The notes under the pieces: model-generated
What the model was told of the DNA's origin: nothing
Database searches by the model: none
The model's input: only the letters and a program-made list of their open reading frames with translations
Program-made: the position numbers and the translations under genes
Assembly (NCBI GenBank): GCA_050011565.1
Contig: JBEKIW010000003.1
Coordinates: forward strand, 192,001 to 256,000
DNA from: Dehalococcoidia bacterium
GTDB lineage: Bacteria; Chloroflexota; Dehalococcoidia; GIF9; UBA5629
Length of the DNA stretch: 64,000 nucleotides
Reading direction: 5' to 3'
Shown here: piece by piece, positions 19,277-44,194 of the stretch
Layout of the letters: each line of letters opens with the position of its first letter
Numbering within the stretch: position 1 is the first letter of the stretch

Positions 19277-19436
19277 TTTGTAATGTAGTTTATTGACCTC
19301 ACCCCCTTTGTCCCCCTCTCCTACCCCATATCCCAGTGGGAATAAATCCTCACTGGATGCCTACCCACCCTGCCTCCCGAGGAGAGGGGGAATGATTTTT
19401 TATTAAGAGGGGCTGTGCCCCTCTTAAACTCCCCTT
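19277..19436. repeat. Intergenic multi-hairpin repeat (CCCCTCTCC...GGAGAGGGG type)
   Basis: ccccctctcc/ggagaggggg, ccagtg/cactgg and ttaagagggg/cccctcttaa inverted repeats; short relative near 25104-25143. Confidence 0.6.
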
Positions 19437-21244
19437 TATGCTGGGAACTTGTATTTGTAGACAATCGTGTCTCCTGCCTGGGGGTAGACGATATAGCCGT
19501 CCAGGCCGAAGAAGTAGATTACATCTGGCACCAGGTTAAGAAGCCTTTTGAGCACGCCGGCTGCCGACTCGCCGGCACCGACTTCGAGCCTGGGGTACAA
19601 ACTGGTAATCAAGCTACTCCGGGACTTATAATCCAGCGTGCCCCCTATCGCCTGTACTACCTTTTCCATTAACTGGTAGCAGGTTAAATCATCGGAGCTA
19701 ATATTCCACTCCGCGGGCTTGTTGAACTGGTAACAAGAAAGCAACCCCCAGGCGTCCACACAGTGAATGATAAAGCTGGCAACATTGGGGTCTCTTTTGT
19801 ACTCCATAGCCTCTACGAAATACCTGGCTGCCTCTGAGAGCTGGTCACCTGAGGTAGTCTTATAACCGACAAAAAGATTAACCCGGGCGCCGCGCTTCAT
19901 AACGGCCAATGAACCTGAGCCCGGGCTGTTATAAGTGCCCCTGGAATTATCCAGCTCCACCACCAGCTCAGAGGGCTGGCTAGGATCTACCGCCTCAATT
20001 ATCCTGGCTATTTTGGAGACCGGGATGGTAATTTTGTCGCCGGCGCCACTTCCTGGGGTGGGGGGACTCCAGGCGCCAGGGCAAAGGGCGCGCCAGACCT
20101 CGGTCGGCTGCGTTGCCCAGATGTATTCTCCGTTGGGGTCGGCGGCTAAAGCCATGCCTCGAGAAGCTAAAGTATCAACGAAGCTGGCTTTATTCCAGTT
20201 GTAGTCGTAGAAATCCGTGCCCGGCTTAAGCCTGAATATCCAGGGCTGATTTTGGCGGGCTAGAGATAATAGGGGGCGTGAGCAAGATGTAGCCGGCTTT
20301 AACAGGTAGGGACCTGAGACATCCAGCGTCTCACCGGCCAGGGCTTCAACTACCGCCTGATGCCTCTCCCAGTACGTGGAAGCAGTCCGTGGCTCCCAGG
20401 GACCGAAGGGCTGCAACCTGCGAAAGCCTACAGGCCAGCCGACCTCGAACTGCCTTAACCTCACCTGGGCGGCAACATCTACCCTGGCCCTGCCTAAACC
20501 TATTTTGGCATCCGTGGCCCAGGTGCCGGCTGAAACCTTATAGCCGTCTCCGTAAACCATGCGGACCACAGAAATATAGCTGCCTTCCTGGACCAGGGCG
20601 ATGATGTTCCAGTCGCCATCATAGTACATGGCTAAATCTTCAATCTCCCGGTCTCCCGAGCGCTGGCCGAGGCCGGTGCTCCAGCTCCCCCCTGTCCTCT
20701 TTTGAATATACAGACTGGTGGGGTCATTGATATCAGAAGCGTGGACGATAGCACAATCGCCATTGGGCTTGTAGGCTATGGCGGCACCTCTTTCGCAGGG
20801 GCGGGCATTCATCATAGCCGTCCAGCTCCCCCAGGTGGCACCGTAGTCCGATGACTGCCGGCGATAGAGATTAGCGGCATCCATGGAGGCCACCATGACC
20901 TCTGCGCCTTGAGAGGCAATGGCGACCCTGGCATAGGCAGGGACACCGCCGAAGGAGCTACCCCACTGGGAAAAACCTGAGCTCGGGCCCGGGCTGGTGA
21001 CACGGGAGAGAAAGAGACTGGTGCCATCTTTGCGGACCCGAATCAATGAGCCGTCACCGGGAATGGTCAAACCGTGGGAATCATTGACCTCACCTCCCTG
21101 ATAAAAGCGCTGCCAGCCCAAGGCTTCCCACTGAAGGCTCGAGGACTGCTGGGGATGGCCGTAAGCCTGCACCTCGAGCTTGACCAGCGGCTTCCTGGTG
21201 GGCTTCCTCTGTTCTTCGAGCAGCGCGTCAGTTATGCTTCGCAT
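19436..21244 (-). CDS. Phage-like tail/baseplate-hub-type protein with beta-propeller/Asp-box region (true start MRSITDALL)
   Basis: ATG at 21244 with AAGGA RBS; SSDYGATW Asp-box; the 941-aa ORF call adds a spurious extension across the IS. Confidence 0.65.
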   Translation of the reverse strand: MRSITDALLEEQRKPTRKPLVKLEVQAYGHPQQSSSLQWEALGWQRFYQGGEVNDSHGLTIPGDGSLIRVRKDGTSLFLSRVTSPGPSSGFSQWGSSFGGVPAYARVAIASQGAEVMVASMDAANLYRRQSSDYGATWGSWTAMMNARPCERGAAIAYKPNGDCAIVHASDINDPTSLYIQKRTGGSWSTGLGQRSGDREIEDLAMYYDGDWNIIALVQEGSYISVVRMVYGDGYKVSAGTWATDAKIGLGRARVDVAAQVRLRQFEVGWPVGFRRLQPFGPWEPRTASTYWERHQAVVEALAGETLDVSGPYLLKPATSCSRPLLSLARQNQPWIFRLKPGTDFYDYNWNKASFVDTLASRGMALAADPNGEYIWATQPTEVWRALCPGAWSPPTPGSGAGDKITIPVSKIARIIEAVDPSQPSELVVELDNSRGTYNSPGSGSLAVMKRGARVNLFVGYKTTSGDQLSEAARYFVEAMEYKRDPNVASFIIHCVDAWGLLSCYQFNKPAEWNISSDDLTCYQLMEKVVQAIGGTLDYKSRSSLITSLYPRLEVGAGESAAGVLKRLLNLVPDVIYFFGLDGYIVYPQAGDTIVYKYKFPA

Positions 21245-21364
21245 GATAAAATCCTTAGGGTAGATTGGAGCAGACGCTCCGGGGTACCCCTTTATTAAAG
21301 GTAAGTATCCCTTGACAATATAAGCTCCTTGTGTTATGATGGTATTATAACAAGGAGAAAAGAA

Positions 21365-22321
21365 ATGACAGCCGTAAATAGAACTAACCCAATAAAGGCA
21401 AAATCTTCTGACTCTCAATATACACTCGTAGAGTTTATGGAGACATTCCCAACCGATGCCGCTTGTCTCGAATGGCTTTGGAAACGACGCTTTTCGAAAG
21501 ATGGCGAACATGCCCATTGCCCGAAGTGCAATAAGGTACGCTCTTTTAAGCGGTATCAATCGCATCAACTGAAAGTCTCTTGGACTTGCGTCGCTTGTGG
21601 TTATCATATTCACCCGTTGGCTAGAACTATCTTCGAGAAGTCCTCTACTTCCCTGCGATTGTGGTTCTATGCCATGTACCTGATGGTGAGCACTAAATGC
21701 GGTATTTCCGCCAAACAACTGGAGCGAGAACTTGGGGTTACATACAAAACAGCTTGGCGTATGGCCTATTTGATAAGGAAATACCTTATGGAACAAACAG
21801 GCGAATTGCTTGGCAGGAATGAGGGTGTTGAACTGGACGAGACATTTATTGGCGGGAAAGCCCATAATATGCACAAGGCCAAACGTGCCCGTCTTGGCGG
21901 ACGTGGAACTGCCGGTAAGGTTCCTGTATTTGGTGCAGTCGAACGGCATGGTAGAGTTGTGGCAGTCACTGTCCCTAACGTAGATAGAGTTACACTCCTG
22001 CCACAAGTCATAAGGCATGTTATTCCAGCGTCCACCGTTTATACCGACGAAATGGGTGCTTATGACCCGCTGACCGAGAATGGATATAACCATAAAAAAA
22101 TCAACCACATGGAAAAAGTCTATGTGAGCGGGGATGTCCATACAAACACAATTGAGGGCTTCTGGTCGCTCGTAAAGCGAGGCATTGGGGGTGTCTATCA
22201 CGCAGTGTCCGCTAAACATCTTCAAGGCTACCTGAATGAATATGCTTGGCGGTATAATCACCGCGACGATGAGAGGGCGCAGTTTGAGACGTTACTTCTT
22301 CGGGCGGCGGCTGGGAGCTAG
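21365..22321 (+). CDS. IS1595 family transposase
   Basis: Zn ribbon CPKC...CVAC, GISAKQLERELGVTYKTAW HTH, VELDET, VYTDE, HTNTIEGFWSLVKRG. Confidence 0.96.
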   Translation: MTAVNRTNPIKAKSSDSQYTLVEFMETFPTDAACLEWLWKRRFSKDGEHAHCPKCNKVRSFKRYQSHQLKVSWTCVACGYHIHPLARTIFEKSSTSLRLWFYAMYLMVSTKCGISAKQLERELGVTYKTAWRMAYLIRKYLMEQTGELLGRNEGVELDETFIGGKAHNMHKAKRARLGGRGTAGKVPVFGAVERHGRVVAVTVPNVDRVTLLPQVIRHVIPASTVYTDEMGAYDPLTENGYNHKKINHMEKVYVSGDVHTNTIEGFWSLVKRGIGGVYHAVSAKHLQGYLNEYAWRYNHRDDERAQFETLLLRAAAGS

Positions 22322-22435
22322 TGGTTTGATTGGCTTTGCCGCCTTTTCGAGTACGTCTAACACGTCCTTGCGTTTCGGGATTGGTATCTCGAAATCTTTC
22401 GGGGTTTTTTGTGTCTTCATTTTCTTGCCTTCCAT
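22292..22435 (-). CDS. Small basic protein inside IS1595 (KTPKDFEIPIPKRKD)
   Basis: 47-aa ORF convergent with and overlapping the transposase end; extended -10 (TGcTATACT) just upstream; alternative start at 22420. Confidence 0.5.
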   Translation of the reverse strand: MEGKKMKTQKTPKDFEIPIPKRKDVLDVLEKAAKPIKPLAPSRRPKK

Positions 22436-22454
22436 AGTTAGAGTATAGCATATC

Positions 22455-23318
22455 ATGAACGACTGGTGGCTCAAGTTCCAACGGGCTGAGAAGCACATGG
22501 TAGACATCAATCAAGAAGCCATGAGGTACGCAAGCAGCAATCCTTACAGTTTTACTCGTATTCGGTTGCCTAACAGCAAGAATGAAATCAGGGGACGCTT
22601 CCATATCACTGAGCAACCTAATCCCATGATTGCTGTTATGCTCGGTGATTTCATACATAACTTGCGAAGTGCACTTGATTACATCGTTGTTGCCTGTGTT
22701 CCCAAACAACATCGGAAGCACGCGAGTTTCCCAATCCTGTATCAAGACATCTTCGCCAAGGGTAAGGACGGACAATTCGTGGTCAATGATGCCCAATTGC
22801 GGGATAACTTTGAGACCGCCACCAAAGGGCTTCATCCGAGAGCTAAAGCATTCATCATATCTCTGCAACCTTATCAAGCGGTGATTCTTGGGCTTCCGCC
22901 AGATAATTCTCTCGGAGTTCTCAACCGCCTCGAAAACGCAGACAAGCACCGTCAACTTATTACCGTTGGTTGTGGCGGGCAAGAAGGTATTCTTAGTTTT
23001 ACTGTACGTGGTTTCACTGAATCTATTACATATCACCAAAGGTTGGGCGTCGGTACTCAATTTCTCAAAGATGATACAGTAATCCCGTTCGTTCTTCATC
23101 CTGATTTCAATAGAATTCGCCATCCCGATGGGTCGTTTGTCCAGCCATCCGATATGGAGATGCATCTCAGCACTACCGCTAAGATATTGGTCAAGGTACC
23201 CAGGATAGGAGGGAATCAGTCTGCCTATAACATGTTGATTGATGACATCATATCTACCTCCCTCTTTGACGTGAACGGCATTCTCAAGCGATTGGAATTC
23301 TTTGTTTGCAATACCTAA
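22455..23318 (+). CDS. IS passenger protein, putative HEPN-like domain
   Basis: LKFQRAEKH...GDFIHNLRSALDY...LNRLENADKHR pattern; lies entirely between the TIRs. Confidence 0.6.
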   Translation: MNDWWLKFQRAEKHMVDINQEAMRYASSNPYSFTRIRLPNSKNEIRGRFHITEQPNPMIAVMLGDFIHNLRSALDYIVVACVPKQHRKHASFPILYQDIFAKGKDGQFVVNDAQLRDNFETATKGLHPRAKAFIISLQPYQAVILGLPPDNSLGVLNRLENADKHRQLITVGCGGQEGILSFTVRGFTESITYHQRLGVGTQFLKDDTVIPFVLHPDFNRIRHPDGSFVQPSDMEMHLSTTAKILVKVPRIGGNQSAYNMLIDDIISTSLFDVNGILKRLEFFVCNT

Positions 23319-23370
23319 TCGTTTATTCAATTTTCCCCCTTTATATCGAGATGGGATAGGTACCTTTATT

Positions 23371-23438
23371 AAATGTAGCCTCGACCTTTCAAGGTCGAGG
23401 TCGCGGGGTTAAAACCCCGCGGCTGCATGCTTAACAAA
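23371..23438. repeat. GTAG-type REP-like double hairpin, copy 1
   Basis: 60/68 identical to 32889-32956, with compensatory stem changes. Confidence 0.85.
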
Positions 23439-23570
23439 CTCTCCGCTATTCGCAGGCTGGACGTCGCATAAGAAATTTTTCTAAATTTTTTCAAAATAGT
23501 ACTATTTTCCCCTTGAAATTGGCCTGGCTTACTGTTATTATTCGTATACTCCTTGTGGGGGAGGAGTAAG

Positions 23571-23696
23571 ATGCTTAATAGAAATCTGATAATGGGCCTC
23601 ATTACCCTCGGAGTCTTGCTGGTGATATTGGTATATATAGCCATTACGCCATCCCCCTTTGGTAATTTACCTTCGATCATAATCCCGCAAGGCTAA
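23571..23696 (+). CDS. Small single-TM protein (41 aa, MLNRNLIMGLITLGVLLVILVYIAITPSPFGNLPSIIIPQG)
   Basis: GGAGGAG RBS, TTGAAA-17-TATTAT promoter, hydrophobic helix; below the ORF-track cutoff. Confidence 0.6.
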   Translation: MLNRNLIMGLITLGVLLVILVYIAITPSPFGNLPSIIIPQG

Positions 23697-23789
23697 AGCC
23701 CCATCTACACACCTGCTGCGGGAGCACTTGCTCCCGGCTATCCCCATCAGTCTCTATTAATTTCAATCGGTCTCCATCAATCTCTAACA

Positions 23790-24512
23790 TCAATTGAAAC
23801 TATTCGATAGCAGCTGCCCTGCCAGAGTTCCCACTCCATACAGCGTCCTGTTGAACGGCGCCAGCCTGGACTGCCAGTCGATTTTGGAACCGGCCAGCTC
23901 AGACAGGCTGTTGGCAGCCCTGACGGTAGTGTTGAAGTCCCGGTTAAAGACATAGTACTCGGGACTGCGGCCGCACTCTCCTTTCTTTTTCTCGGTCTGC
24001 TCCTTAATCCAGTCCTTGGCATCTACCGCCAGGTCGACCAGGTAATTCCAGTAGTCCACGGCCTGTGAGATGTGCTGGCAATCCGTCACCGAGCCTTTAT
24101 CCCGCGCCTTATAGAATATGGTGCACGGGTTCACCTCGGTATAGGTCTCCTTGACGGTAGCCATAACGCTCTCGTGGAACGCCTTGGGGTCAAAGGCGTG
24201 AATTCCAAGAGTTACTTGAGTTCCTTGAGTTTCTGGTGTTCCTTGAGTTTCTTGAGCTAAAGGGGCCGGCGCGCCGTTAGAAACAGTAGCCACCTGTGCC
24301 TCGGCGGTTTTGGTTTTCTCCTTCTCGGCGTCAATTTTGCCCTGAGTCAGTATATAGAAGACTCCGGCTGCGGCTGCTGCCAGGGATGGGACCATGTCCA
24401 TAAAGGTCTTCTGCGCCTCCGGCTCCTGGACGAAAAGCGGTATGATTGTGGCCAGCATAGTAATAATGAAGGCGCTGTACTTCTTTTTGCCATCTAAAAA
24501 CTTTTGTATCAT
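23790..24512 (-). CDS. Holin-like two-TM N-terminus fused to a soluble helical domain
   Basis: FLDGKKKYSAFII...YILTQGKID holin-like pattern; AGGAGG RBS; ETQGT repeat linker. Confidence 0.6.
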   Translation of the reverse strand: MIQKFLDGKKKYSAFIITMLATIIPLFVQEPEAQKTFMDMVPSLAAAAAGVFYILTQGKIDAEKEKTKTAEAQVATVSNGAPAPLAQETQGTPETQGTQVTLGIHAFDPKAFHESVMATVKETYTEVNPCTIFYKARDKGSVTDCQHISQAVDYWNYLVDLAVDAKDWIKEQTEKKKGECGRSPEYYVFNRDFNTTVRAANSLSELAGSKIDWQSRLAPFNRTLYGVGTLAGQLLSNSFN

Positions 24513-24743: not shown

Positions 24744-24775
24744 TGTAGCCTCGACCTTAAAAGGTCGAGGCTACA
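24744..24775. repeat. REP-like hairpin, copy 2, preceded by a 23-bp tandem duplication (24698-24743)
   Basis: tgtagcctcgacctt-aa-aaggtcgaggctaca perfect stem. Confidence 0.85.
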
Positions 24776-25046
24776 CATGGTGCCTACTTTTCGTGTTCCG
24801 TAAGGCTCGCTGTACCGTCCTCCGGCTGACTCCGAAAAGCCCGGCTATTTCCTTGACGCTTTTACCCATCCGCCTCAAGTCCTCCATTCGCCTCTTCCGC
24901 GCCGCCATCCTCAACCGCTGCTGACCCCGGGGTTCGTCCTCAACACATTTGGGCAGCGGACAATTCAAACACGACGGAAAGAACTCGCAGCCCTGGTCCC
25001 GCCACTCAACCTCATCAGGCAATAAATCAAGTTCGCCGCCAATCAT
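24771..25046 (-). CDS. Small Cys4 plus helix-turn-helix protein (putative regulator of the phage-like module)
   Basis: C-x5-C-x2-C-x4-C followed by GKSVKEIAGLFGVSRRTVQR. Confidence 0.8.
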   Translation of the reverse strand: MIGGELDLLPDEVEWRDQGCEFFPSCLNCPLPKCVEDEPRGQQRLRMAARKRRMEDLRRMGKSVKEIAGLFGVSRRTVQRALRNTKSRHHV

Positions 25047-25098: not shown

Positions 25099-25210
25099 TT
25101 TTTCACCCTCACCACGACCCTCTCCCATCAAGGGATAGGGAGATTACAAACAGTTCAGGCGTGGCTTCGGACTTGACAAGGCTCAGGCGAGGGGGTATAA
25201 GATTTATACC

Positions 25211-26560
25211 GTGAAATTTCTGGGTTATGCCGGTCTGATTCTTCTACTGACGTTATCCCTGGTGCCTGGCGCCGTCAAAGCCGACGGCTGAGCCGGGGGT
25301 TCCTGTGCCTCCACAGTTAGTGGAGCAGAAGGCAACACGGGTAAGGTCGGCTCTACGGCAACTATAAGCATAAATGGCGGCGGGTTCGATTTAAACGGGC
25401 CTTACAAAGTCAGGTGGAGCAAAGTCCCTATCGGGGATAACAGCGTTGAATGTACTGATGAGGTTTTACCCTCGTGTTACACCGTAGTAGGTAAGGGTGA
25501 GTTTCCTATCGACACGAAAAATGCAACGGTCTCTTTTACCATACCTGAAGCCACTTACGGTCCCAACTTCGTCCAGTTCCTGAGAGACTATCGCCCCGGA
25601 AACCCTTACGGCTTCTCCTTTTCCGTAGTGCCAGACCTCACCGTGACCTCATCGACATGCACGCCCCACTCTACCGTCACCATCAAGGGCACCGGCTTCC
25701 CGGCCAAGAGTCAAGACATCAAGGTCAGCTTCGATGGCAAAGATACCGGTCTGAGCATCCTTACCAGCGAACTGGGCAGCTTTACCGGCGATTTCACCAT
25801 ACCCGAGACCATGGCCGGCAGCCACCAGTTCAAAGCTACCGATGAGAACCTGTTCCTGGGAGATCTTACGGCTAACCTTCAGGTCGGCCCGACCATCAGC
25901 CTTCAACCGGAGCATCCCGAGATCGGCTCCGAGGTCACCTTGACCGGCTGTGGGTTCTCCGCCAGGAGCACGGTAGCTATTAAGTACGATGATATCGCCG
26001 TATCGAACTCTCCGGTTACTGACGACAACGGCAACTTCACCGAGAAATTCACCGTACCGGAAAGCTCCACGGGCAATCACGTCATCACCGCTACCGATAG
26101 GGCGGGCAATGTCGCCACCTACGGGCTGCCCCTGAAAGGCGGCCTGGAAGGCACAGCGCCGTCGGTACCGACTCCCACCTCACCGGTAGATGAAAGGTAC
26201 GGCTGGTTCGGCTCCCAGCCTGTCATCTTCACCTGGACTGATTGCACCGACCCCAGCGGCATCACCTATACCCTGGAGGTAGATAACAGCCTTCGCTTCT
26301 TTCCGCTGGAACCGGGCATGAGAAAGACAGGACTGACCAAGCCCAACTGCGTCATGAATCTCGAGCCTGGCACCTATTACTGGCGGGTCAAAGCCGTCGA
26401 CGGTGCCGGCAACGAAAGCGAATGGTCGCTCTCTCCATACCCCTTCCAGGTGGGATTTTTCTCCGGCCTGTATCTGGCCGGCGGCGCCGTCATCTTCCTT
26501 ATCATCTTCATCTTCATCATCCGTGCCTTCTTCCGTCGCGTCCGTGAATACTACAAGTAA
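25211..26560 (+). CDS. Secreted IPT/TIG plus Fn3-like surface protein with in-frame TGA at codon 27 (putative selenocysteine; otherwise a pseudogene)
   Basis: GTG at 25211 begins a signal peptide (..VPGAVKA) in frame with the 25628 ORF; single TGA at 25289-25291; C-terminal TM plus basic tail; TTGACA-17-TATAAG promoter. Confidence 0.75.
25292..25333 (+). promoter_or_regulatory. Candidate bacterial SECIS hairpin
   Basis: CTCCAC-AGTTA-GTGGAG upper stem; apical loop begins after 23 nt following the UGA, with G at loop position 2. Confidence 0.5.
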
Positions 26561-27192: not shown

Positions 27193-30100
27193 ATGAAAAC
27201 GAAATATCCTAAACTATTCGGTCTCCTGGCGATGCTGATGCTGGTAGCCAGCTTCGTGGTGCCGACCAGTTTGGTCAACCCATCAGCAGTTCAGGCTGAC
27301 CCCGGCATGTGCAAATGGGATAACTTGGCGGAACCGGGATCAGCGCCCGTACTGAACAACATCACTCCCAATGAAATACTCGACTACTCTATCGCCAGTG
27401 ACGGGACCAACATGAGCGCCATAGTACGTATACCCAGCACTGCATTGGGAGGGGTAAACGTACTGATGAATTCACCGGCGTATACGGGTCTGTTCTGGTC
27501 ACTCGCCAAATACCCCGATCTGGCCGGGACGCCTGGCTTTTACGTGGGAGCCGTCCCACGCATGCTGTACCAGGTAATCTATGCCCCGGACGACCCCAAC
27601 TTCTTCGCTGTGACCAGCGATGGTTCAGCTGCTGCAGACTTATTCAAAGGCCCTAAAGAGGTGTGGGTCACGCGGAACAATGGCGGTACCTGGGAAAACG
27701 CCCAACTGCAGGGCAAACTGACAGCAGTAGGTGAGACCATCCGCTGCATCGACGTCTCAGTCGATTACGGCGGCAGGCGCGATATCGTCGTCGGTACGGT
27801 AAATGGTGCCGGCGCCGGCAAGCTCATAGTAGTTAAGTCAACCGGCTTCAGCGGCTGGGTGACACAGGTTACCACTGCTCTGGGCACTGTCGATTTCTTT
27901 GCCGCTAAGTTCTCGCCGAGCTATCCCAGCGATGGTTCGCTAGCGGTCGTCTTCGCTGACCTTACCAAGACTTATTACAACGTCGCCCTGCGCGACCTCG
28001 ATGCTAACACGATTATTAGCTGGGCATTCACCACGCCGGGCGTGGAAGTTGTAGACCCCACTAAGGCCGGCACGTCACCCGGTTATCTCGAGCTGAACAA
28101 GGCCGACCTTGAGCTGCCCTCCGACTTCTCGGGTCAGGCGGCATCACTGCGCCGCGCCTACATCAGCCTCGACACCTATAACTGTGGCGCAGCTAAGGCT
28201 GCCTGGGACGGTATCGTCCGCATAGACGACACTACCGTCTATGTCCTCATGGACACCTCAGGCATGCCCGACAAGTCCATTTACAGCATCGCCTACTTCG
28301 GCACCTATGCCTCAGGCAAGCTGCTGGCCGGCGAGCGAATGGGCTATCCGTGTGATGCAACCGTGCCCACGTGGTTTACCGATTCACCGACAACCTGCCC
28401 CGTCCCCTGCTGGTATCCGTGCCTTAAATGTCCTACCGGCGCTGCCTGCGGTGCTGGTGCCTGCAACTGCCCTGGCCTTTTCAACTGCGCACCAGGGTCC
28501 AAGACTGGCGTCGGTGCTGCTCTCGTTGCGTGGAGGCCTAACGGCCAGCTGGCATTCGTCGGCACCGGCGGGCTAGCCGCTGCTATGGGCGCAACCTGGT
28601 GGAGGTGCTTGTCGACTGGTGCCGTAACACCATGCGACGAGTCTGCCTTTGCCATCAGCCGCAACAACGGTGAGACCTGGAACGAGGTTGCACTCATCGA
28701 TACTAAGATAACCAAGTTTACCGATGTAGCGCCCTCGGCTGACTGCCAGACCGTTTACCTGGCTTCGGTCAACACAGGCTGCACGATCACTACTGGCGGG
28801 TGCATCTTTAAGCAACAAATACAATGTGACAACTCTACACTACCTTTACCTACTTTTAAGGACCTCGGGCAATTAGGTGGAGGTTACCCAAATTCGGCTA
28901 ATTGCACCGGCTGCGGTTATAATACCTATACCATCCTGTCGATGGCTACTGGCGGGTGGAACCCGGTTACCTGCAAGTGCGATTACACCATTAGTGGTAA
29001 CATCACATTTGACATGCCCTGTGCTCCGGGCTGCTGGACGGTCGTCCCGTTCTCCACTTCGGGCTCAATGCCCTGTGCCACATCGACAAATATCACTGTC
29101 ACCTTACCCTGCCAAGCCAGTATCTGCTGCCCTACTACTATTACTGAGGGTTGCTGCGGCTTCGACAGCGTGTGGCGCACCAGCAGCAATGCTGACGTGG
29201 TGGCACCTATTGCCAATCTGCCCGTAGGCACGATCTGGGAGAGGGTATGGACCCACGTAACTGCAGCAAATTGCAATTTACCACAGTCAAACGTGGCGCT
29301 GTTGAGGTTGGTGCCTTATTGCGCCGACCCGACCGGCGAAATAGTCGGCTGGGGCGTTTACGGTAAAAATGTAGCCTTCTGGTCGCCTGACTTCGGTGAT
29401 TACTGGGCTCCGATAACGGTGCGGAATACTATCCAAGACTTCACCTTTGAGTCCAGGACAATGCTGTACTTCCTCAGCCCCACCGGTCTGGTTCAGAAGA
29501 TGCCGTTCACCGGCACCTCCTGGTCAACCTCTCTGCCTAGCTATGATTCAAGTACAAACCCGGCTCATAGCATCGCCGCTCAGCCAACAGGCAAAGTCCT
29601 GGTTGGCAAGGGTGACGGAGGCGCGTATGCCGGTGCATTCAGCTTTAACATGGACACCGATAACCCGACGTTCGGGTCATGGTTAACAGCTGGACCCATA
29701 CTGGGTGGCGCTGTACATGTCGCCTTCGATCCTAACTTCGATGACAACAGCATCATCTATCTCGACCAAGAAGGTCCTGGTGGCTCGGTGTATCGAAACA
29801 ACCCCACATCGCAGCTAAGATGGACAGATATGGACATGCTGGCTGCTGCTAACGGCGCTGTTGGCTGCCTCCCTCTCAACCCTGCCTCAGGCTTTAGCGG
29901 TATATTTCTCGCCTACACCGGCCAAGCTCTGTACGCATCCAGCCAAGTTCCAGGCTGGGGTGTCTTCCGCATCATCGATGACGGCACCGGCAAATACGGT
30001 CCGCTCTCCGGCTTCCCCAAGCCGGGCATCGCCTGGGATCAGCTAACCGGAGTAGGACTTCCCGTCGATGTGGTATTCACAGCTCAGCCTACTGCACTCA

Positions 30101-31056
30101 AGGCATGCGGCTGCTGCACCCTGGACACCGATACCACGCTGTATGCCATTGACGACAGGCCTTACGGAGGGCCCCTTACGAATGTTGGCAAGATCTGGAG
30201 GTTCACCGACTGCCTGGCCAAGAGAGGCCCAAGCCTGGTTACCGAGGATAAGGTTCTCATTGGCTGCGACCCGGTATCCGGCAGGGCTGGTGAAGTCAAC
30301 CTGTGCTGGGAGCAACTCTGCGTGGCTAACGGGTACGATATCGAAGTCGCTAAGGATGCCAACTTCACCATTAGAGTTTTAGACTGGATGGACGAAGGAT
30401 GTACCATTAGCCCATTCGAGCCCGCTGATGTGACCACTCCTTGCGCCTATGTACCGGCTGGCGGCATAGTCTCGGGCAGCTCCGCGATTGGTAGCACCTA
30501 TTTCTACACGGGCAACCTCGAATGCGGACACACGTACTACTTCCGTGTCAGGGCTCGCGAGTGCGCCACTGGCGCGTTTGCCCGCAGCCCGTGGTCTGAG
30601 GTCAGAAGCTTCACCGTCAAGGCTGGCTACCCAGTTGTCAGCCAGTACCCTGGCCTGCAACTTCTGGCACCAGCCAACGGCAGCCTGGGCATCCCGGTCA
30701 AGTCAGTATCCTTCTCGTGGTCACCGTTTGGGGATGCCACGAAGTACAAGTTCGTACTGGCTAAGGACTCGAACATGACCCAGGTCGTCAAAGAGGCTGA
30801 GACTACCAACACCGCCTACGGGTACGATGGTACGCTGGACTACAGCACCAACTACTTCTGGCGAGTAATGGCTACCGAACCAGCTCCGAGCGATTGGTCA
30901 GCTACCTTCAGCTTCCAGACGGAGCCGCAACCTGCGCCTCCATCGGAAAAAGCACCAGTAGCTCCAACCCCAATTTGGGTTTGGGTTGTTATCGCTATCG
31001 GCGCTATTCTCGTCATCGTCACCCTGGTACTCATCTTCAAGACGCGCCGGGTGTGA
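27193..31056 (+). CDS. Large Cys-rich S-layer-like surface protein (Asp-box/BNR propeller, C-terminal Fn3-like domains, TM anchor)
   Basis: AGGAGG RBS, signal peptide, Asp-boxes (TRNNGGTW, SRNNGETW, SPDFGDYW), about 44 Cys, TPIWVW-TM-KTRR end, long leader and strong terminator. Confidence 0.8.
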   Translation: MKTKYPKLFGLLAMLMLVASFVVPTSLVNPSAVQADPGMCKWDNLAEPGSAPVLNNITPNEILDYSIASDGTNMSAIVRIPSTALGGVNVLMNSPAYTGLFWSLAKYPDLAGTPGFYVGAVPRMLYQVIYAPDDPNFFAVTSDGSAAADLFKGPKEVWVTRNNGGTWENAQLQGKLTAVGETIRCIDVSVDYGGRRDIVVGTVNGAGAGKLIVVKSTGFSGWVTQVTTALGTVDFFAAKFSPSYPSDGSLAVVFADLTKTYYNVALRDLDANTIISWAFTTPGVEVVDPTKAGTSPGYLELNKADLELPSDFSGQAASLRRAYISLDTYNCGAAKAAWDGIVRIDDTTVYVLMDTSGMPDKSIYSIAYFGTYASGKLLAGERMGYPCDATVPTWFTDSPTTCPVPCWYPCLKCPTGAACGAGACNCPGLFNCAPGSKTGVGAALVAWRPNGQLAFVGTGGLAAAMGATWWRCLSTGAVTPCDESAFAISRNNGETWNEVALIDTKITKFTDVAPSADCQTVYLASVNTGCTITTGGCIFKQQIQCDNSTLPLPTFKDLGQLGGGYPNSANCTGCGYNTYTILSMATGGWNPVTCKCDYTISGNITFDMPCAPGCWTVVPFSTSGSMPCATSTNITVTLPCQASICCPTTITEGCCGFDSVWRTSSNADVVAPIANLPVGTIWERVWTHVTAANCNLPQSNVALLRLVPYCADPTGEIVGWGVYGKNVAFWSPDFGDYWAPITVRNTIQDFTFESRTMLYFLSPTGLVQKMPFTGTSWSTSLPSYDSSTNPAHSIAAQPTGKVLVGKGDGGAYAGAFSFNMDTDNPTFGSWLTAGPILGGAVHVAFDPNFDDNSIIYLDQEGPGGSVYRNNPTSQLRWTDMDMLAAANGAVGCLPLNPASGFSGIFLAYTGQALYASSQVPGWGVFRIIDDGTGKYGPLSGFPKPGIAWDQLTGVGLPVDVVFTAQPTALKACGCCTLDTDTTLYAIDDRPYGGPLTNVGKIWRFTDCLAKRGPSLVTEDKVLIGCDPVSGRAGEVNLCWEQLCVANGYDIEVAKDANFTIRVLDWMDEGCTISPFEPADVTTPCAYVPAGGIVSGSSAIGSTYFYTGNLECGHTYYFRVRARECATGAFARSPWSEVRSFTVKAGYPVVSQYPGLQLLAPANGSLGIPVKSVSFSWSPFGDATKYKFVLAKDSNMTQVVKEAETTNTAYGYDGTLDYSTNYFWRVMATEPAPSDWSATFSFQTEPQPAPPSEKAPVAPTPIWVWVVIAIGAILVIVTLVLIFKTRRV

Positions 31057-42310: not shown

Positions 42311-42406
42311 GAGGACAGCCATCTGCCATAACCCTGGGCCCAGGCTCTCTATTGACTTTAATCCATTTCGTGTTATGATAGCAGACAAAATGGCTTGGAG
42401 GAAGCA

Positions 42407-44194
42407 ATGAAAGCAGGAGCTACAGGTACAGCACTCGCCATTCTATTGCTCGCTGTTTGCCTGACACCGATACCTGTCCACGCGGATTCTCTAATGTTGA
42501 ACACTGCCCAAGGTATTGTGGGCACAAATGTGACCATTCCTTCGGTGACTGGCTACGGCCTTGGTAATTACGAGCTTTACTGGGGCGAAAATGACCTGCT
42601 GATAGGCCAGGGCGAAATTAAGCAGGGCGTAGTTTCAATAGCTTTTATTGTTCCGGAAGCCTCCAGAGGCAAACACAAAGTCACCTTGAAAATCGCCGGC
42701 AACTTTTTCACTAGCGACTTTATCGTCATTCCCGCTATAGGCCTCAGCAGTAACGAGGGTACCGTAGGCTCAAATCTGACAATTGCCGGGAAAGGCTTTA
42801 ATGCCAATGAATCGAACATACAGGTAACCTTCGACGCTAACCCGGCACAAACTGGGATTGTGGCCGGTAGTAAAGGAAGCTGGCAAATCACTATAAAAGT
42901 TCCGGCGAGCAGTCGAGGCCAGCATATTATCGATGCTGCAGGCACCACACCTGCTTCCGAGGTTGAAGATAAAGAATTCACAGTAATCCCGGAAATCGAA
43001 ACCAACCCGTCGTCCGGCTGGGTAAACACGGTAGTAGGCATATACGGCAGCGGGTTTGCTACCGGCGAAACCAACATAAAAGTAACGTACGATGGCGGAA
43101 CAGTAAAAACGGATATAGCGGCCGATGCCAAAGGTTCATGGCAGTCCAGTTTCTCAATCCCGTCATCCTCTAGAGGCAGCCACGATATAAGAGCTTACGG
43201 AGCGGTTACCAACGAAAGTGATTTACAATCAGCTAGCTTCTCCGTATCTCCGGGAATAAAACTTGAACCGGTCTCCGGTTACCTGGGCGGTGCTATTTAT
43301 GTAGGTGATGGTCTATATATCGGCGGCGTCGGCTTCGAAGCTAACGAAACCAATATCAAAGTCACTTATGACGGAGCGCTGGCTATCAGTAATATCACAG
43401 CCGATACCAAGGGCTCATGGTCAGATAAATTAGATGTGCCTCCGTCTAGCAAGGGAGAGCATATCATCGATGCTTCTGGAGAAATTACTAAAGCTAGCGA
43501 TATCGTCGACGCTATTGTAATTGTTTCACCCAAGGTAGAACTGAATCCCGCTTCGGGCGCTATAGGCAGTGATATAACGGTTCACGGCACTGGTTTTGCA
43601 GCCAATCAGGTTATAACTATCAGCTACGATGGCGCCAAGGTTGCCTCCGGCGCAGCCACAGACGCCAAAGGCGTTTTCACGACCAGCTTCAAAATTCCAC
43701 AAAGTAGAGCTGGCGACCATACAGTAACCGTTACCGACCCAACGGCCGCCGTATTCTCAATGAACTTGAGTGTAGAGTCAGTGCCGCCGCCAACACCCAA
43801 TCTCATATCTCCGGAGGCCGGCAGCGAGTTCGGGTCCTTCGGCAAAACTATCGTTACCTTCCGCTGGTCAGCCGTCGAAGACCCCAGCGGAGTCTACTAT
43901 GTATTGGAAATAAGCCCCAGTTCCGATTTTGCTGGTACAGTAATTCGAAAAGAGGGCTTAACCGTGACCGACTACACGCTGGCTAAGAACGAGGCTCTCA
44001 CCAAAGGGAACTATTATTGGAGAGTCAGAGCTGTAGACGGTGCCGATAATCAGGGCGATTGGACAAACGGACAACTCTTTAAGATTGGCGGCATCGACTG
44101 GTGGCTAATTCTACTCATCGCCGTGGCTGTCATAGTTGTAATCGTTATTATCTGGCGTTTCGCATCTGTCAACCGAAAGGACAAATGGAAATAA
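42407..44194 (+). CDS. Secreted multi-IPT/TIG plus Fn3-like surface protein with C-terminal TM anchor
   Basis: Signal peptide (VHA), repeated GxGFxAxExNIxVTxD units, DPSGV.Y, YYWRVRAVDGA; paralog of 25211-26560. Confidence 0.85.
   Translation: MKAGATGTALAILLLAVCLTPIPVHADSLMLNTAQGIVGTNVTIPSVTGYGLGNYELYWGENDLLIGQGEIKQGVVSIAFIVPEASRGKHKVTLKIAGNFFTSDFIVIPAIGLSSNEGTVGSNLTIAGKGFNANESNIQVTFDANPAQTGIVAGSKGSWQITIKVPASSRGQHIIDAAGTTPASEVEDKEFTVIPEIETNPSSGWVNTVVGIYGSGFATGETNIKVTYDGGTVKTDIAADAKGSWQSSFSIPSSSRGSHDIRAYGAVTNESDLQSASFSVSPGIKLEPVSGYLGGAIYVGDGLYIGGVGFEANETNIKVTYDGALAISNITADTKGSWSDKLDVPPSSKGEHIIDASGEITKASDIVDAIVIVSPKVELNPASGAIGSDITVHGTGFAANQVITISYDGAKVASGAATDAKGVFTTSFKIPQSRAGDHTVTVTDPTAAVFSMNLSVESVPPPTPNLISPEAGSEFGSFGKTIVTFRWSAVEDPSGVYYVLEISPSSDFAGTVIRKEGLTVTDYTLAKNEALTKGNYYWRVRAVDGADNQGDWTNGQLFKIGGIDWWLILLIAVAVIVVIVIIWRFASVNRKDKWK

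Follow-up and report, generated by a model that had tools for sequence, protein, structure and literature searches.

The window analysed here is a stretch of 64,000 nucleotides (positions 192,001 to 256,000, forward strand) of contig JBEKIW010000003.1 in the assembly GCA_050011565.1 of a Dehalococcoidia bacterium. The genome, which we call G000, is 2.0 Mb and 99.2% complete, and the window lies within its contig C3. At positions 25211–26560 there is a gene for a membrane-anchored surface protein with immunoglobulin (Ig)-like domains, which very probably is a genuine selenoprotein; this judgement covers the decoding of selenocysteine (Sec) and the layout of the protein as they can be read from the sequence, and not the function. 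An open reading frame (ORF) listing without read-through begins only at the GTG at 25628. The frame from GTG 25211, however, is interrupted solely by a TGA at 25289–25291 (codon 27) before the stop at 26558–26560, and gives 449 residues if the TGA is read through. Between this TGA and GTG 25628 the window sequence has no in-frame ATG, GTG or TTG. Codons 1–24 spell MKFLGYAGLILLLTLSLVPGAVKA, followed by D25, G26, the TGA, AGGS and Cys32. A first-pass annotation of the window had described the same start, the DG-TGA-AGGSC motif with the TGA five residues before a Cys, and the open frame into the 25628 ORF, and all of this was recovered. It had also placed the TGA as the third residue of the mature protein. 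The TGA does follow two residues after the predicted cleavage site, and that site, after A-V-K-A, is one we infer for signal peptidase I from the AxA rule.

The Sec reading is based on a conserved UGA, a covarying selenocysteine insertion sequence (SECIS), the presence of the Sec machinery, Sec/Cys homologue pairs and the domain layout of the protein. We searched for homologues in six frames in 41 related genomes, including that of the window. At least 11 further near-full-length matches, each with exactly one TGA and with 52–81% identity and lower, were seen among the matches listed (G004, G013, G009, G005, G001 with two, G008, G007, G024, G019 and G015). When the window protein was aligned with ten such one-TGA matches (48–81% identity to it), all TGAs fell in one column, and G26 and C32 were invariant. 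In this 11-sequence alignment, protein-level conservation extends through the segment from the TGA to the next possible start, and this segment is predicted to fold as a beta-sandwich. All loci pooled, there are 26 distinct TGA forms, 25 of them with U-x4-C and one (L057) with U-x5-C, and the residue before U is Gly in 23 and Ser or Thr in 3. The hosts of the orthologues are, according to public contigs, uncultured Dehalococcoidales or Dehalococcoidia known as metagenome-assembled genomes. A sample of 301 genomes taken evenly from the class had the N-terminal module in 5, all of the window's own family. In relatives that are free of the motif, the mature protein begins directly at the first strand.

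Six relatives have Cys in the Sec position, as G-C-x4-C (L052, L123, L124, L131, L132 and L133). A comparison of homologues at the TGA column had been named as a check by the first-pass annotation, and the outcome, TGA in 26 distinct forms and Cys in six, is what would be expected of a selenoprotein. The distribution of the two forms follows the Sec machinery. SelA is present in all 14 genomes of the relatives set with a TGA form (among the matches listed), plus G043, G044, G045 and G222, and among the same matches no TGA form was found in a SelA-negative genome. No match to SelA was found in five genomes with a Cys form, namely G041 (completeness not given), G020 (91%), and G058, G290 and G122 (97–98%). 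The sixth Cys form, L123 (..ANAGCVGGSC..), comes from the SelA-positive genome G001, where it stands in tandem with its TGA paralogue L045 (..VEAGUVGANC..) on contig C12 at ~37.3–39.8 kb, a natural Sec/Cys pair in one organism.

A sequencing error at the TGA is excluded, since 26 distinct sequences from many assemblies carry it. Furthermore, a contig spanning 25100–25474 from the independent metagenome run X3 has 0 differences to the window, a comparison made between assembled contigs and not raw reads. It was also possible to observe a decayed member of the family. The orthologue on contig C4 of G012 (L029, L049) has kept the signal peptide, the TGA and the hairpin, with several further stops and frame changes, and is a recent pseudogene of the selenoprotein.

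The stem-loop that the first-pass annotation had seen after the TGA, with the loop AGUUA starting after 23 nt, was found at 25309–25325. It has 6 bp, folds alone at -7.9 kcal/mol, and its loop begins 23 nt past the A of the UGA. We applied a rule under which the stem must be free of mismatches, count 5 bp or more and contain two or more G-C pairs, while the loop must include GU and start 19–30 nt from the U. It is passed by 23 of the 26 distinct TGA forms, with GU-loop hairpins 20–25 nt after the UGA, and by 0/6 Cys forms. In the controls, the rule was passed by 563 of 11000 shuffles (5.1%), by 7 of the 426 remaining in-frame positions in the window gene (1.6%), and by 48 of 1555 TGAs with open flanks genome-wide (3.1%). 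The stems vary among clades and the G-U loop is constant: CUCCAC/GUGGAG, CCCCAC/GUGGGG, UGCCCGCA/UGUGGGCG, CGGCGUCA/UGACGCCG and CCCCGG/CCGGGG. In the VSLTP clade the loop is built from the codons AGU and UUG in every TGA form, and Sec-free relatives use other codons there.

For the covariation, which had also been proposed as a check, 18 of the first 22 TGA sequences were used in an ungapped alignment; L022, L023, L040 and L043 were dropped because their 4-nt loops need a gap. Scored on a structure taken from these same sequences, 82.6% of the cells are paired, as compared to 53.1% when shuffled and 31–42% with a slid partner. Both sides have changed in 7 of 8 pairs, and the covariation score of 0.715, as compared to 0.186, was matched by 0 of 500 shuffles. 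The published bSECIS model has a loop of 3–9 nt, an upper stem of 4–16 bp, a G in the first two loop positions and a distance of 16–37 nt from the UGA, together with a minimum free energy of at most -7.5 kcal/mol, as given in the legend of Fig. 2 of PMC13188914. The window agrees with the model as stated in that legend (loop AGUUA, stem 5–6 bp, spacing 23 nt, -20.7 kcal/mol over 55 nt), and so does the expectation in the first-pass annotation of an early G in the loop. In unconstrained folds of the first 55 nt, 21 of the 26 TGA forms, the window included, satisfy all four constraints of the legend.

The four genes that a selenoprotein depends on, selA, selB, selC and selD, whose presence the first-pass annotation wanted to see confirmed, are all on contig C4, at ~47–53 kb. 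The selD is itself interrupted by one TGA, in a GAGUASK site, selB has 645 codons and includes the SelB winged-helix domain, and the tRNA-Sec has the anticodon TCA. Five other TGA-interrupted genes of the genome have similar hairpins 20–26 nt from the U (Table 1), and the one in the C_GCAxxG_C_C gene has an AGUUA loop too, as at 25309–25325. The list of the other selenoprotein genes is incomplete, because the hairpin rule missed SelD. The FdhA, HdrA-like, DsbA-like UxxC and C_GCAxxG_C_C-glutaredoxin genes match families in the selenoprotein table of PMC13188914, and the Fe-S protein with the motif FIUNCCGDCCG is unmatched to any family in that table as far as the accessible text goes. Machinery, TGA/Cys homologues and a covarying hairpin thus all favour Sec at the TGA, as first proposed.

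A promoter was part of the first-pass description. Its two boxes, TTGACA and TATAA[AG] with a 17-nt spacer, are conserved in the majority of the 11 orthologous upstream regions that were aligned, and in this respect the claim stood. A scan for consensus promoters did not call the plus-strand promoter at 25173–25201, because the scan rule wants T at position 6 of the -10 box, and here it is G. The boxes end ~9 nt ahead of the start codon, which suggests that the mRNA probably is leaderless or nearly so, with the transcription start placed from the promoter boxes. No Shine-Dalgarno sequence was seen upstream of the gene or of its orthologues in the aligned region (window 25173–25213). In G000 and in G004 the start codon is GTG instead of ATG. 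Further upstream, at 25100–25142, there is a short repeat (..caccacgaccctctcccatcaagggatagggag..) where unrelated contigs from all four metagenome runs pile up in large numbers, to a depth of up to ~420. These contigs have loose ends on both sides, and a similar stretch is found upstream of the orthologue in G005. It probably belongs to a class of palindromic or miniature repeats that is dispersed through these genomes.

Table 1. Features of the locus and of TGA-interrupted genes elsewhere in the genome. Positions without a contig name are those of the window; C1, C2 and C4 are other contigs of the genome.
Feature	Position	Strand	Basis
Promoter-like TTGACA (25173-25178), 17-nt spacer, TATAAG (25196-25201)	25173..25201	+	Read from sequence; orthologue conservation
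Proposed selenoprotein gene, complete; 449 codons + stop, TGA 25289-25291 read as Sec	25211..26560	+	Full-length orthologues with exactly one TGA
Predicted signal peptide, residues 1-24, MKFLGYAGLILLLTLSLVPGAVKA	25211..25282	+	Helix 2-16 in model; P-x-A-x-x-A pattern kept in orthologues
Proposed Sec codon UGA, residue 27	25289..25291	+	Same alignment column in 11/11 orthologues; 26 distinct TGA forms; Cys in six
Cys32, invariant partner of Sec, motif U-x4-C	25304..25306	+	Alignment of 11 sequences
First beta-sandwich (Ig-like) domain, residues ~33-140	25307..25630	+	Strands 33-140 in model; invariant G44, V46, G47, W69, F109, P112, E113
Candidate SECIS hairpin, stem CUCCAC/GUGGAG, apical loop AGUUA	25309..25325	+	Folding, covariation, fit to bSECIS model
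Second and third Ig-like domains, residues ~141-306; second is IPT/TIG	25631..26128	+	Pfam; model
Fourth beta-sandwich, membrane-proximal, residues ~321-415, motif YYWRVKAVDGAGNES	26171..26455	+	Pfam Big_13, 29.2 bits (cut-off 27); model
C-terminal transmembrane helix and short basic tail (RAFFRRVREYYK)	26456..26557	+	Helix 420-448 in model; orthologue conservation
Helix-turn-helix (HTH) gene, 91 aa, divergent, conserved neighbour	24771..25046	-	Pfam HTH_23
Cys-rich membrane-anchored surface protein, 1287 aa, putative S-layer-like	27193..31056	+	44 Cys; signal peptide, C-terminal anchor
DsbA-like selenoprotein (UPWC)	C1:556384	+	TGA-interrupted gene with hairpin
C_GCAxxG_C_C-glutaredoxin fusion selenoprotein	C1 ~497115	-	TGA-interrupted gene with hairpin
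FdhA selenoprotein	C1 ~402032	-	TGA-interrupted gene with hairpin
HdrA-like selenoprotein	C1 ~338105	-	TGA-interrupted gene with hairpin
Fe-S protein, motif FIUNCCGDCCG	C2:191921	+	TGA-interrupted gene with hairpin
SelD selenoprotein	C4:46992-47918	-	One TGA; missed by hairpin rule

The AlphaFold model of the protein, built on an 11-row alignment, has a mean predicted local distance difference test (pLDDT) score of 76.3 and consists of an N-terminal helix, four beta-sandwiches from residue 33 to ~415 and a C-terminal helix at 420–448. The first of the Ig-like domains would vanish were the TGA a stop. The protein is a member of the IPT/TIG family by Pfam TIG (PF01833), with 32.1 bits at residues 147–210 as compared to a cut-off of 20.9, and a match to Big_6 in the region of the second and third domains is under its cut-off. 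It appears from the model that Sec27 and Cys32 are part of a short overhang that immediately precedes the first strand at the membrane-distal end of the stalk, and that this overhang is probably flexible. A Foldseek search against the PDB gave only generic strings of Ig and FN3 domains with a template modelling (TM) score of ~0.2, such as those in receptor phosphatase ectodomains and complement C3, and no functional lead. The protein does not belong to the thioredoxin-fold group with UxxC or CxxU, as its spacer has 4 residues, its model is all-beta with terminal helices, and it has no Pfam match to the thioredoxin family.

The HTH gene on the other strand adjoins the orthologue at 13 of the 30 loci examined, some of which are duplicate records. 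Elsewhere, in 8 loci that represent several genera, it stands at the head of a phage-like block with an SPP1-type portal, an HK97-type capsid and an SU10-type adaptor (L038:207–4351, also L039, L040, L043, L044, L046, L051 and L053). The block may represent a prophage site common to these loci, or else an element resembling a gene transfer agent. It is absent from the window genome, where window positions 19436–24512 take its place with an IS1595/ISXO2-type transposase (21329–22321) and ORFs without a family match. The transposase overlaps a 941-codon ORF on the opposite strand, which probably is partly spurious, and the ORFs at 22455–23318 and 23790–24512 have no match in PHROGs or Pfam. A functional link to the conserved upstream genes was considered and rejected. 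Because those genes are phage-like (portal, capsid, adaptor) and missing from the window genome, the sharing of the HTH neighbour is probably positional.

Downstream lies the Cys-rich protein of 1287 aa, which has many of its Cys in a dense cluster at residues ~400–730, and also Asp-box-like motifs. It belongs to no Pfam or NCBIfam family, with weak matches only in Pfam and none in NCBIfam, and it may be a surface-layer protein, perhaps a counterpart of DET1407, a putative S-layer protein of Dehalococcoides (PMC5102406). In 9 distinct loci, among them that of the Cys form L052, a homologue of this protein is encoded downstream of the orthologue.

We propose the following course of events. The mRNA would start at or just before the GTG, and the ribosome would read the 24-residue signal peptide and then Asp-Gly. 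The hairpin would recruit SelB with Sec-tRNA(Sec) at the UGA, and selenocysteine would be inserted with no termination. That the UGA is decoded in this way, by the ordinary bacterial mechanism, is in all probability the case as judged from the comparison of sequences. The product would be exported through the Sec translocon, cut after A-V-K-A, and retained by its C-terminal membrane helix. Its four beta-sandwich domains would then serve as a stalk that holds the flexible N-terminal tip, D-G-U-A-G-G-S-C, away from the cell. Selenium is the more reactive element, and Se-S bonds have a lower redox potential, which is relevant in an anoxic habitat. Sec27 and Cys32 may form a reversible selenenylsulfide, which could exchange with, or cross-link to, extracellular thiols, and the neighbouring Cys-rich surface protein would be a candidate partner. 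The first-pass annotation had suggested disulfide shuffling or covalent attachment as possible roles of a Sec next to a Cys-rich S-layer. Among functions for the tip we consider selenenylsulfide exchange or cross-linking the most likely, and metal capture comes second. It is a rather doubtful extension of this that the G-U-x4-C tip is a portable module by which stalk proteins of the wall-less Dehalococcoidales make Se-S bonds to a Cys-rich surface layer.

Several observations weigh against parts of this proposal. Three of the 26 TGA forms fail the hairpin rule, L053 with an 8-bp stem and the loop GAU, and L055 and L102 with one stem mismatch each, and in 5 of the 26 the SECIS hairpin lies outside the minimum-energy fold. 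The covariation figures lean toward the hairpin, because the structure came from the counted sequences themselves, which are mutually related, and the four sequences with 4-nt loops were excluded. The tip of the model has a pLDDT below 50 (residues 13–40), and the model does not define its conformation. As to function, the protein is without a cofactor-binding domain able to re-reduce the tip. The N-terminal Cys of the 1287-aa neighbour is not conserved, and secondary paralogues with the same tip have neither the Cys-rich nor the HTH neighbour, so that what links the tip to the Cys-rich protein is their adjacency. A pairing of the tip with Cys56 in the N-terminal part of the neighbour was dropped as a candidate, since this Cys is missing in the neighbours of several TGA forms, and no other Cys emerged as a partner.

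An alternative that leaves the decoding of Sec unchanged is that the tip is a metal or metalloid hook, in which a soft metal (e.g. Ni, Cu, Hg or Co) is chelated by Sec27 and Cys32, perhaps together with the new N-terminus, and is thereby captured, sensed or detoxified at the cell surface. The motif does lie within a Gly-rich flexible tail at the extreme N-terminus of the mature protein, and we presume a resemblance to the N-terminal nickel hook of nickel superoxide dismutase. On the other hand, there is no conserved His, Met or Asp near the pair except the variable residue 25, and none of the conserved neighbours encodes a metal transporter or chaperone. Relatives differ by 2–4 residues in how far U lies from the predicted cleavage site, and a role for the N-terminal amine is therefore disfavoured. 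Families related to metals do occur among selenoproteins, and the accessible part of PMC13188914 lists a mercuric transport protein, a Cu/Zn efflux transporter, CopZ-like, YHS and BtuF. Taken together, we find the metal hook unlikely.

It is also conceivable that the Sec, or the Cys, is a lipobox-like modification site, with cleavage directly before U27 and lipidation of the selenol by Lgt and LspA. A lipobox follows the rule of uncharged [LVI][ASTVI][GAS]-C directly after the hydrophobic core. The G, S or T that precedes U in 26/26 forms is like lipobox position -1, Lgt (two genes) and LspA (one gene) are both encoded in the window genome, and the same tip heads several divergent paralogues, as would be expected of a sorting signal. 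The window protein has Lys at -4 and Asp at -2, however, and so does not count as a lipoprotein. By a simple pattern, a charged residue at -2 occurs in only 1 of 92 lipoprotein-like N-termini of the window genome, and the Cys there directly follows the hydrophobic stretch, whereas 8 residues, including a clean P-x-A-x-x-A site for signal peptidase I, separate core and U in the window protein. A C-terminal membrane anchor is already present as well. Such a modification is highly improbable.

Still less probable is a recoding of the UGA as Trp, Cys or Gly, or that UGA and hairpin are mainly a selenium-dependent switch of expression. A UGA at codon 27 would indeed tie the synthesis of the whole protein to the supply of Sec-tRNA. 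The alternative residue is Cys in 6/6 of the non-TGA forms that keep the motif, though, which marks a functional thiol or selenol, and the partner Cys is invariant. Furthermore, the genome has both tRNA-Sec and SelB, and the hairpin agrees with the model for SelB-type SECIS.

Least probable of all is that the TGA is a true stop, in a pseudogene or after a short 26-codon ORF followed by a separate downstream gene, as gene callers annotate it. The public proteins of the family are known only as N-terminally truncated forms of 353–415 aa that start after the TGA, and the G012 relative really is a pseudogene with several stops, but the TGA stands in one column in 26 distinct sequences with both flanks evolving as protein, the hairpin covaries, TGA forms occur only in SelA-positive genomes (among the matches listed), and, with no in-frame start between the TGA and 25628, a membrane-anchored ectodomain would be deprived of its signal peptide and of an entire conserved domain.

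The reading as a selenoprotein also agrees with what is known from canonical bacterial selenoprotein genes such as FdhA. These likewise have an in-frame UGA, a hairpin 16–37 nt downstream whose loop has an early G followed by U or G, Sec/Cys homologue pairs, and a dependence on selA, selB, selC and selD. They differ in that they are oxidoreductases with the Sec in a folded active site, with UxxC or CxxU, while the window protein has the Sec in a disordered tail at the mature N-terminus, with U-x4-C on a beta-sandwich stalk, and no cofactor domain. Mammalian thioredoxin reductase has a C-terminal Gly-Cys-Sec-Gly tail, in which the adjacent Sec and Cys are re-reduced by the flavoenzyme. As an analogy, and with no family relationship, the principle of a flexible terminal Sec/Cys pair that forms a selenenylsulfide and transfers redox equivalents to partners is the same. 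That pair is C-terminal, adjacent and part of a flavoenzyme, in contrast to the window protein, which is without a reductase module.

The Sec-free Ig-like (IPT/TIG, Big) surface proteins of Dehalococcoidia are similar to the window protein in having a signal peptide, tandem beta-sandwiches, a membrane-proximal domain of the YYWRVKA type, and a C-terminal helix with a basic tail. Unlike it, they have no G-U-x4-C tip, TGA or hairpin, and the mature protein starts at the first strand (..AQNITLTP..). Three such paralogues are found in the window genome, at window positions 42395–44194, C4:71364–73004 and C4:90006–91355.

Selenoproteins outside the cytoplasm are already known. MccSep (ExtKL) of Geobacter sulfurreducens is a periplasmic multiheme polysulfide reductase in which the incorporation of selenium was shown by mass spectrometry, so that the export of Sec proteins is feasible (PMC13510729). 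According to the accessible text of that paper, it shares with the window protein a signal peptide, an activity outside the cytoplasm, Asp-Gly before the Sec (..PDGUP..) and a Sec that is placed on an Ig-like domain. It differs in having five c-type hemes, with Sec at residue 325 in the catalytic centre by a heme, and in being a soluble tetramer (PMC13510729). A sequence relationship between the two was neither found nor looked for. What is unusual in the window protein is thus not the export of a selenoprotein as such but the carrier of the Sec.

The first-pass annotation knew of no such family, and the databases agree. NCBIfam has no model over its cut-off for the window protein; the best of 7 matches is GxPGS_dom, a generic Ig-like domain, with 35 bits as compared to a cut-off of 45, and none of the 7 is a selenoprotein model. 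Every database member of the family begins only after the TGA, and its entry either reads 'hypothetical protein' or is nameless. In its accessible form, the table of prokaryotic selenoproteins in the 2026 review PMC13188914 has no entry for TIG, immunoglobulin, fibronectin or UxxxxC. Such a family is not mentioned in the accessible text of the deep-Sep and BSepDB papers either, and the 111-family list of BSepDB could still hold a prior entry. Within these sources, the G-U-x4-C surface protein of uncultured Dehalococcoidales is a selenoprotein family that is so far unlisted.

To our knowledge, nearly every known bacterial selenoprotein either is an oxidoreductase or handles metals, and has its Sec in a folded active site. 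The present family is invisible in the databases, and its localisation is mispredicted, because the gene models produced by current callers omit signal peptide and Sec in every member. A Sec in the flexible tip of an exported Ig-like stalk points to the use of selenium at the cell surface in abundant uncultured anaerobes of peat and sediment. Within one bacterial family, the switch between Sec and Cys goes along with whether the Sec machinery is present or has been lost, and this is a natural experiment on Sec as compared to Cys outside the cell. If the tips do make Se-S staples, these would hold in a reducing habitat where disulfides fail, and would provide the first case of Sec in a bacterial cell envelope with a structural and not a catalytic role.

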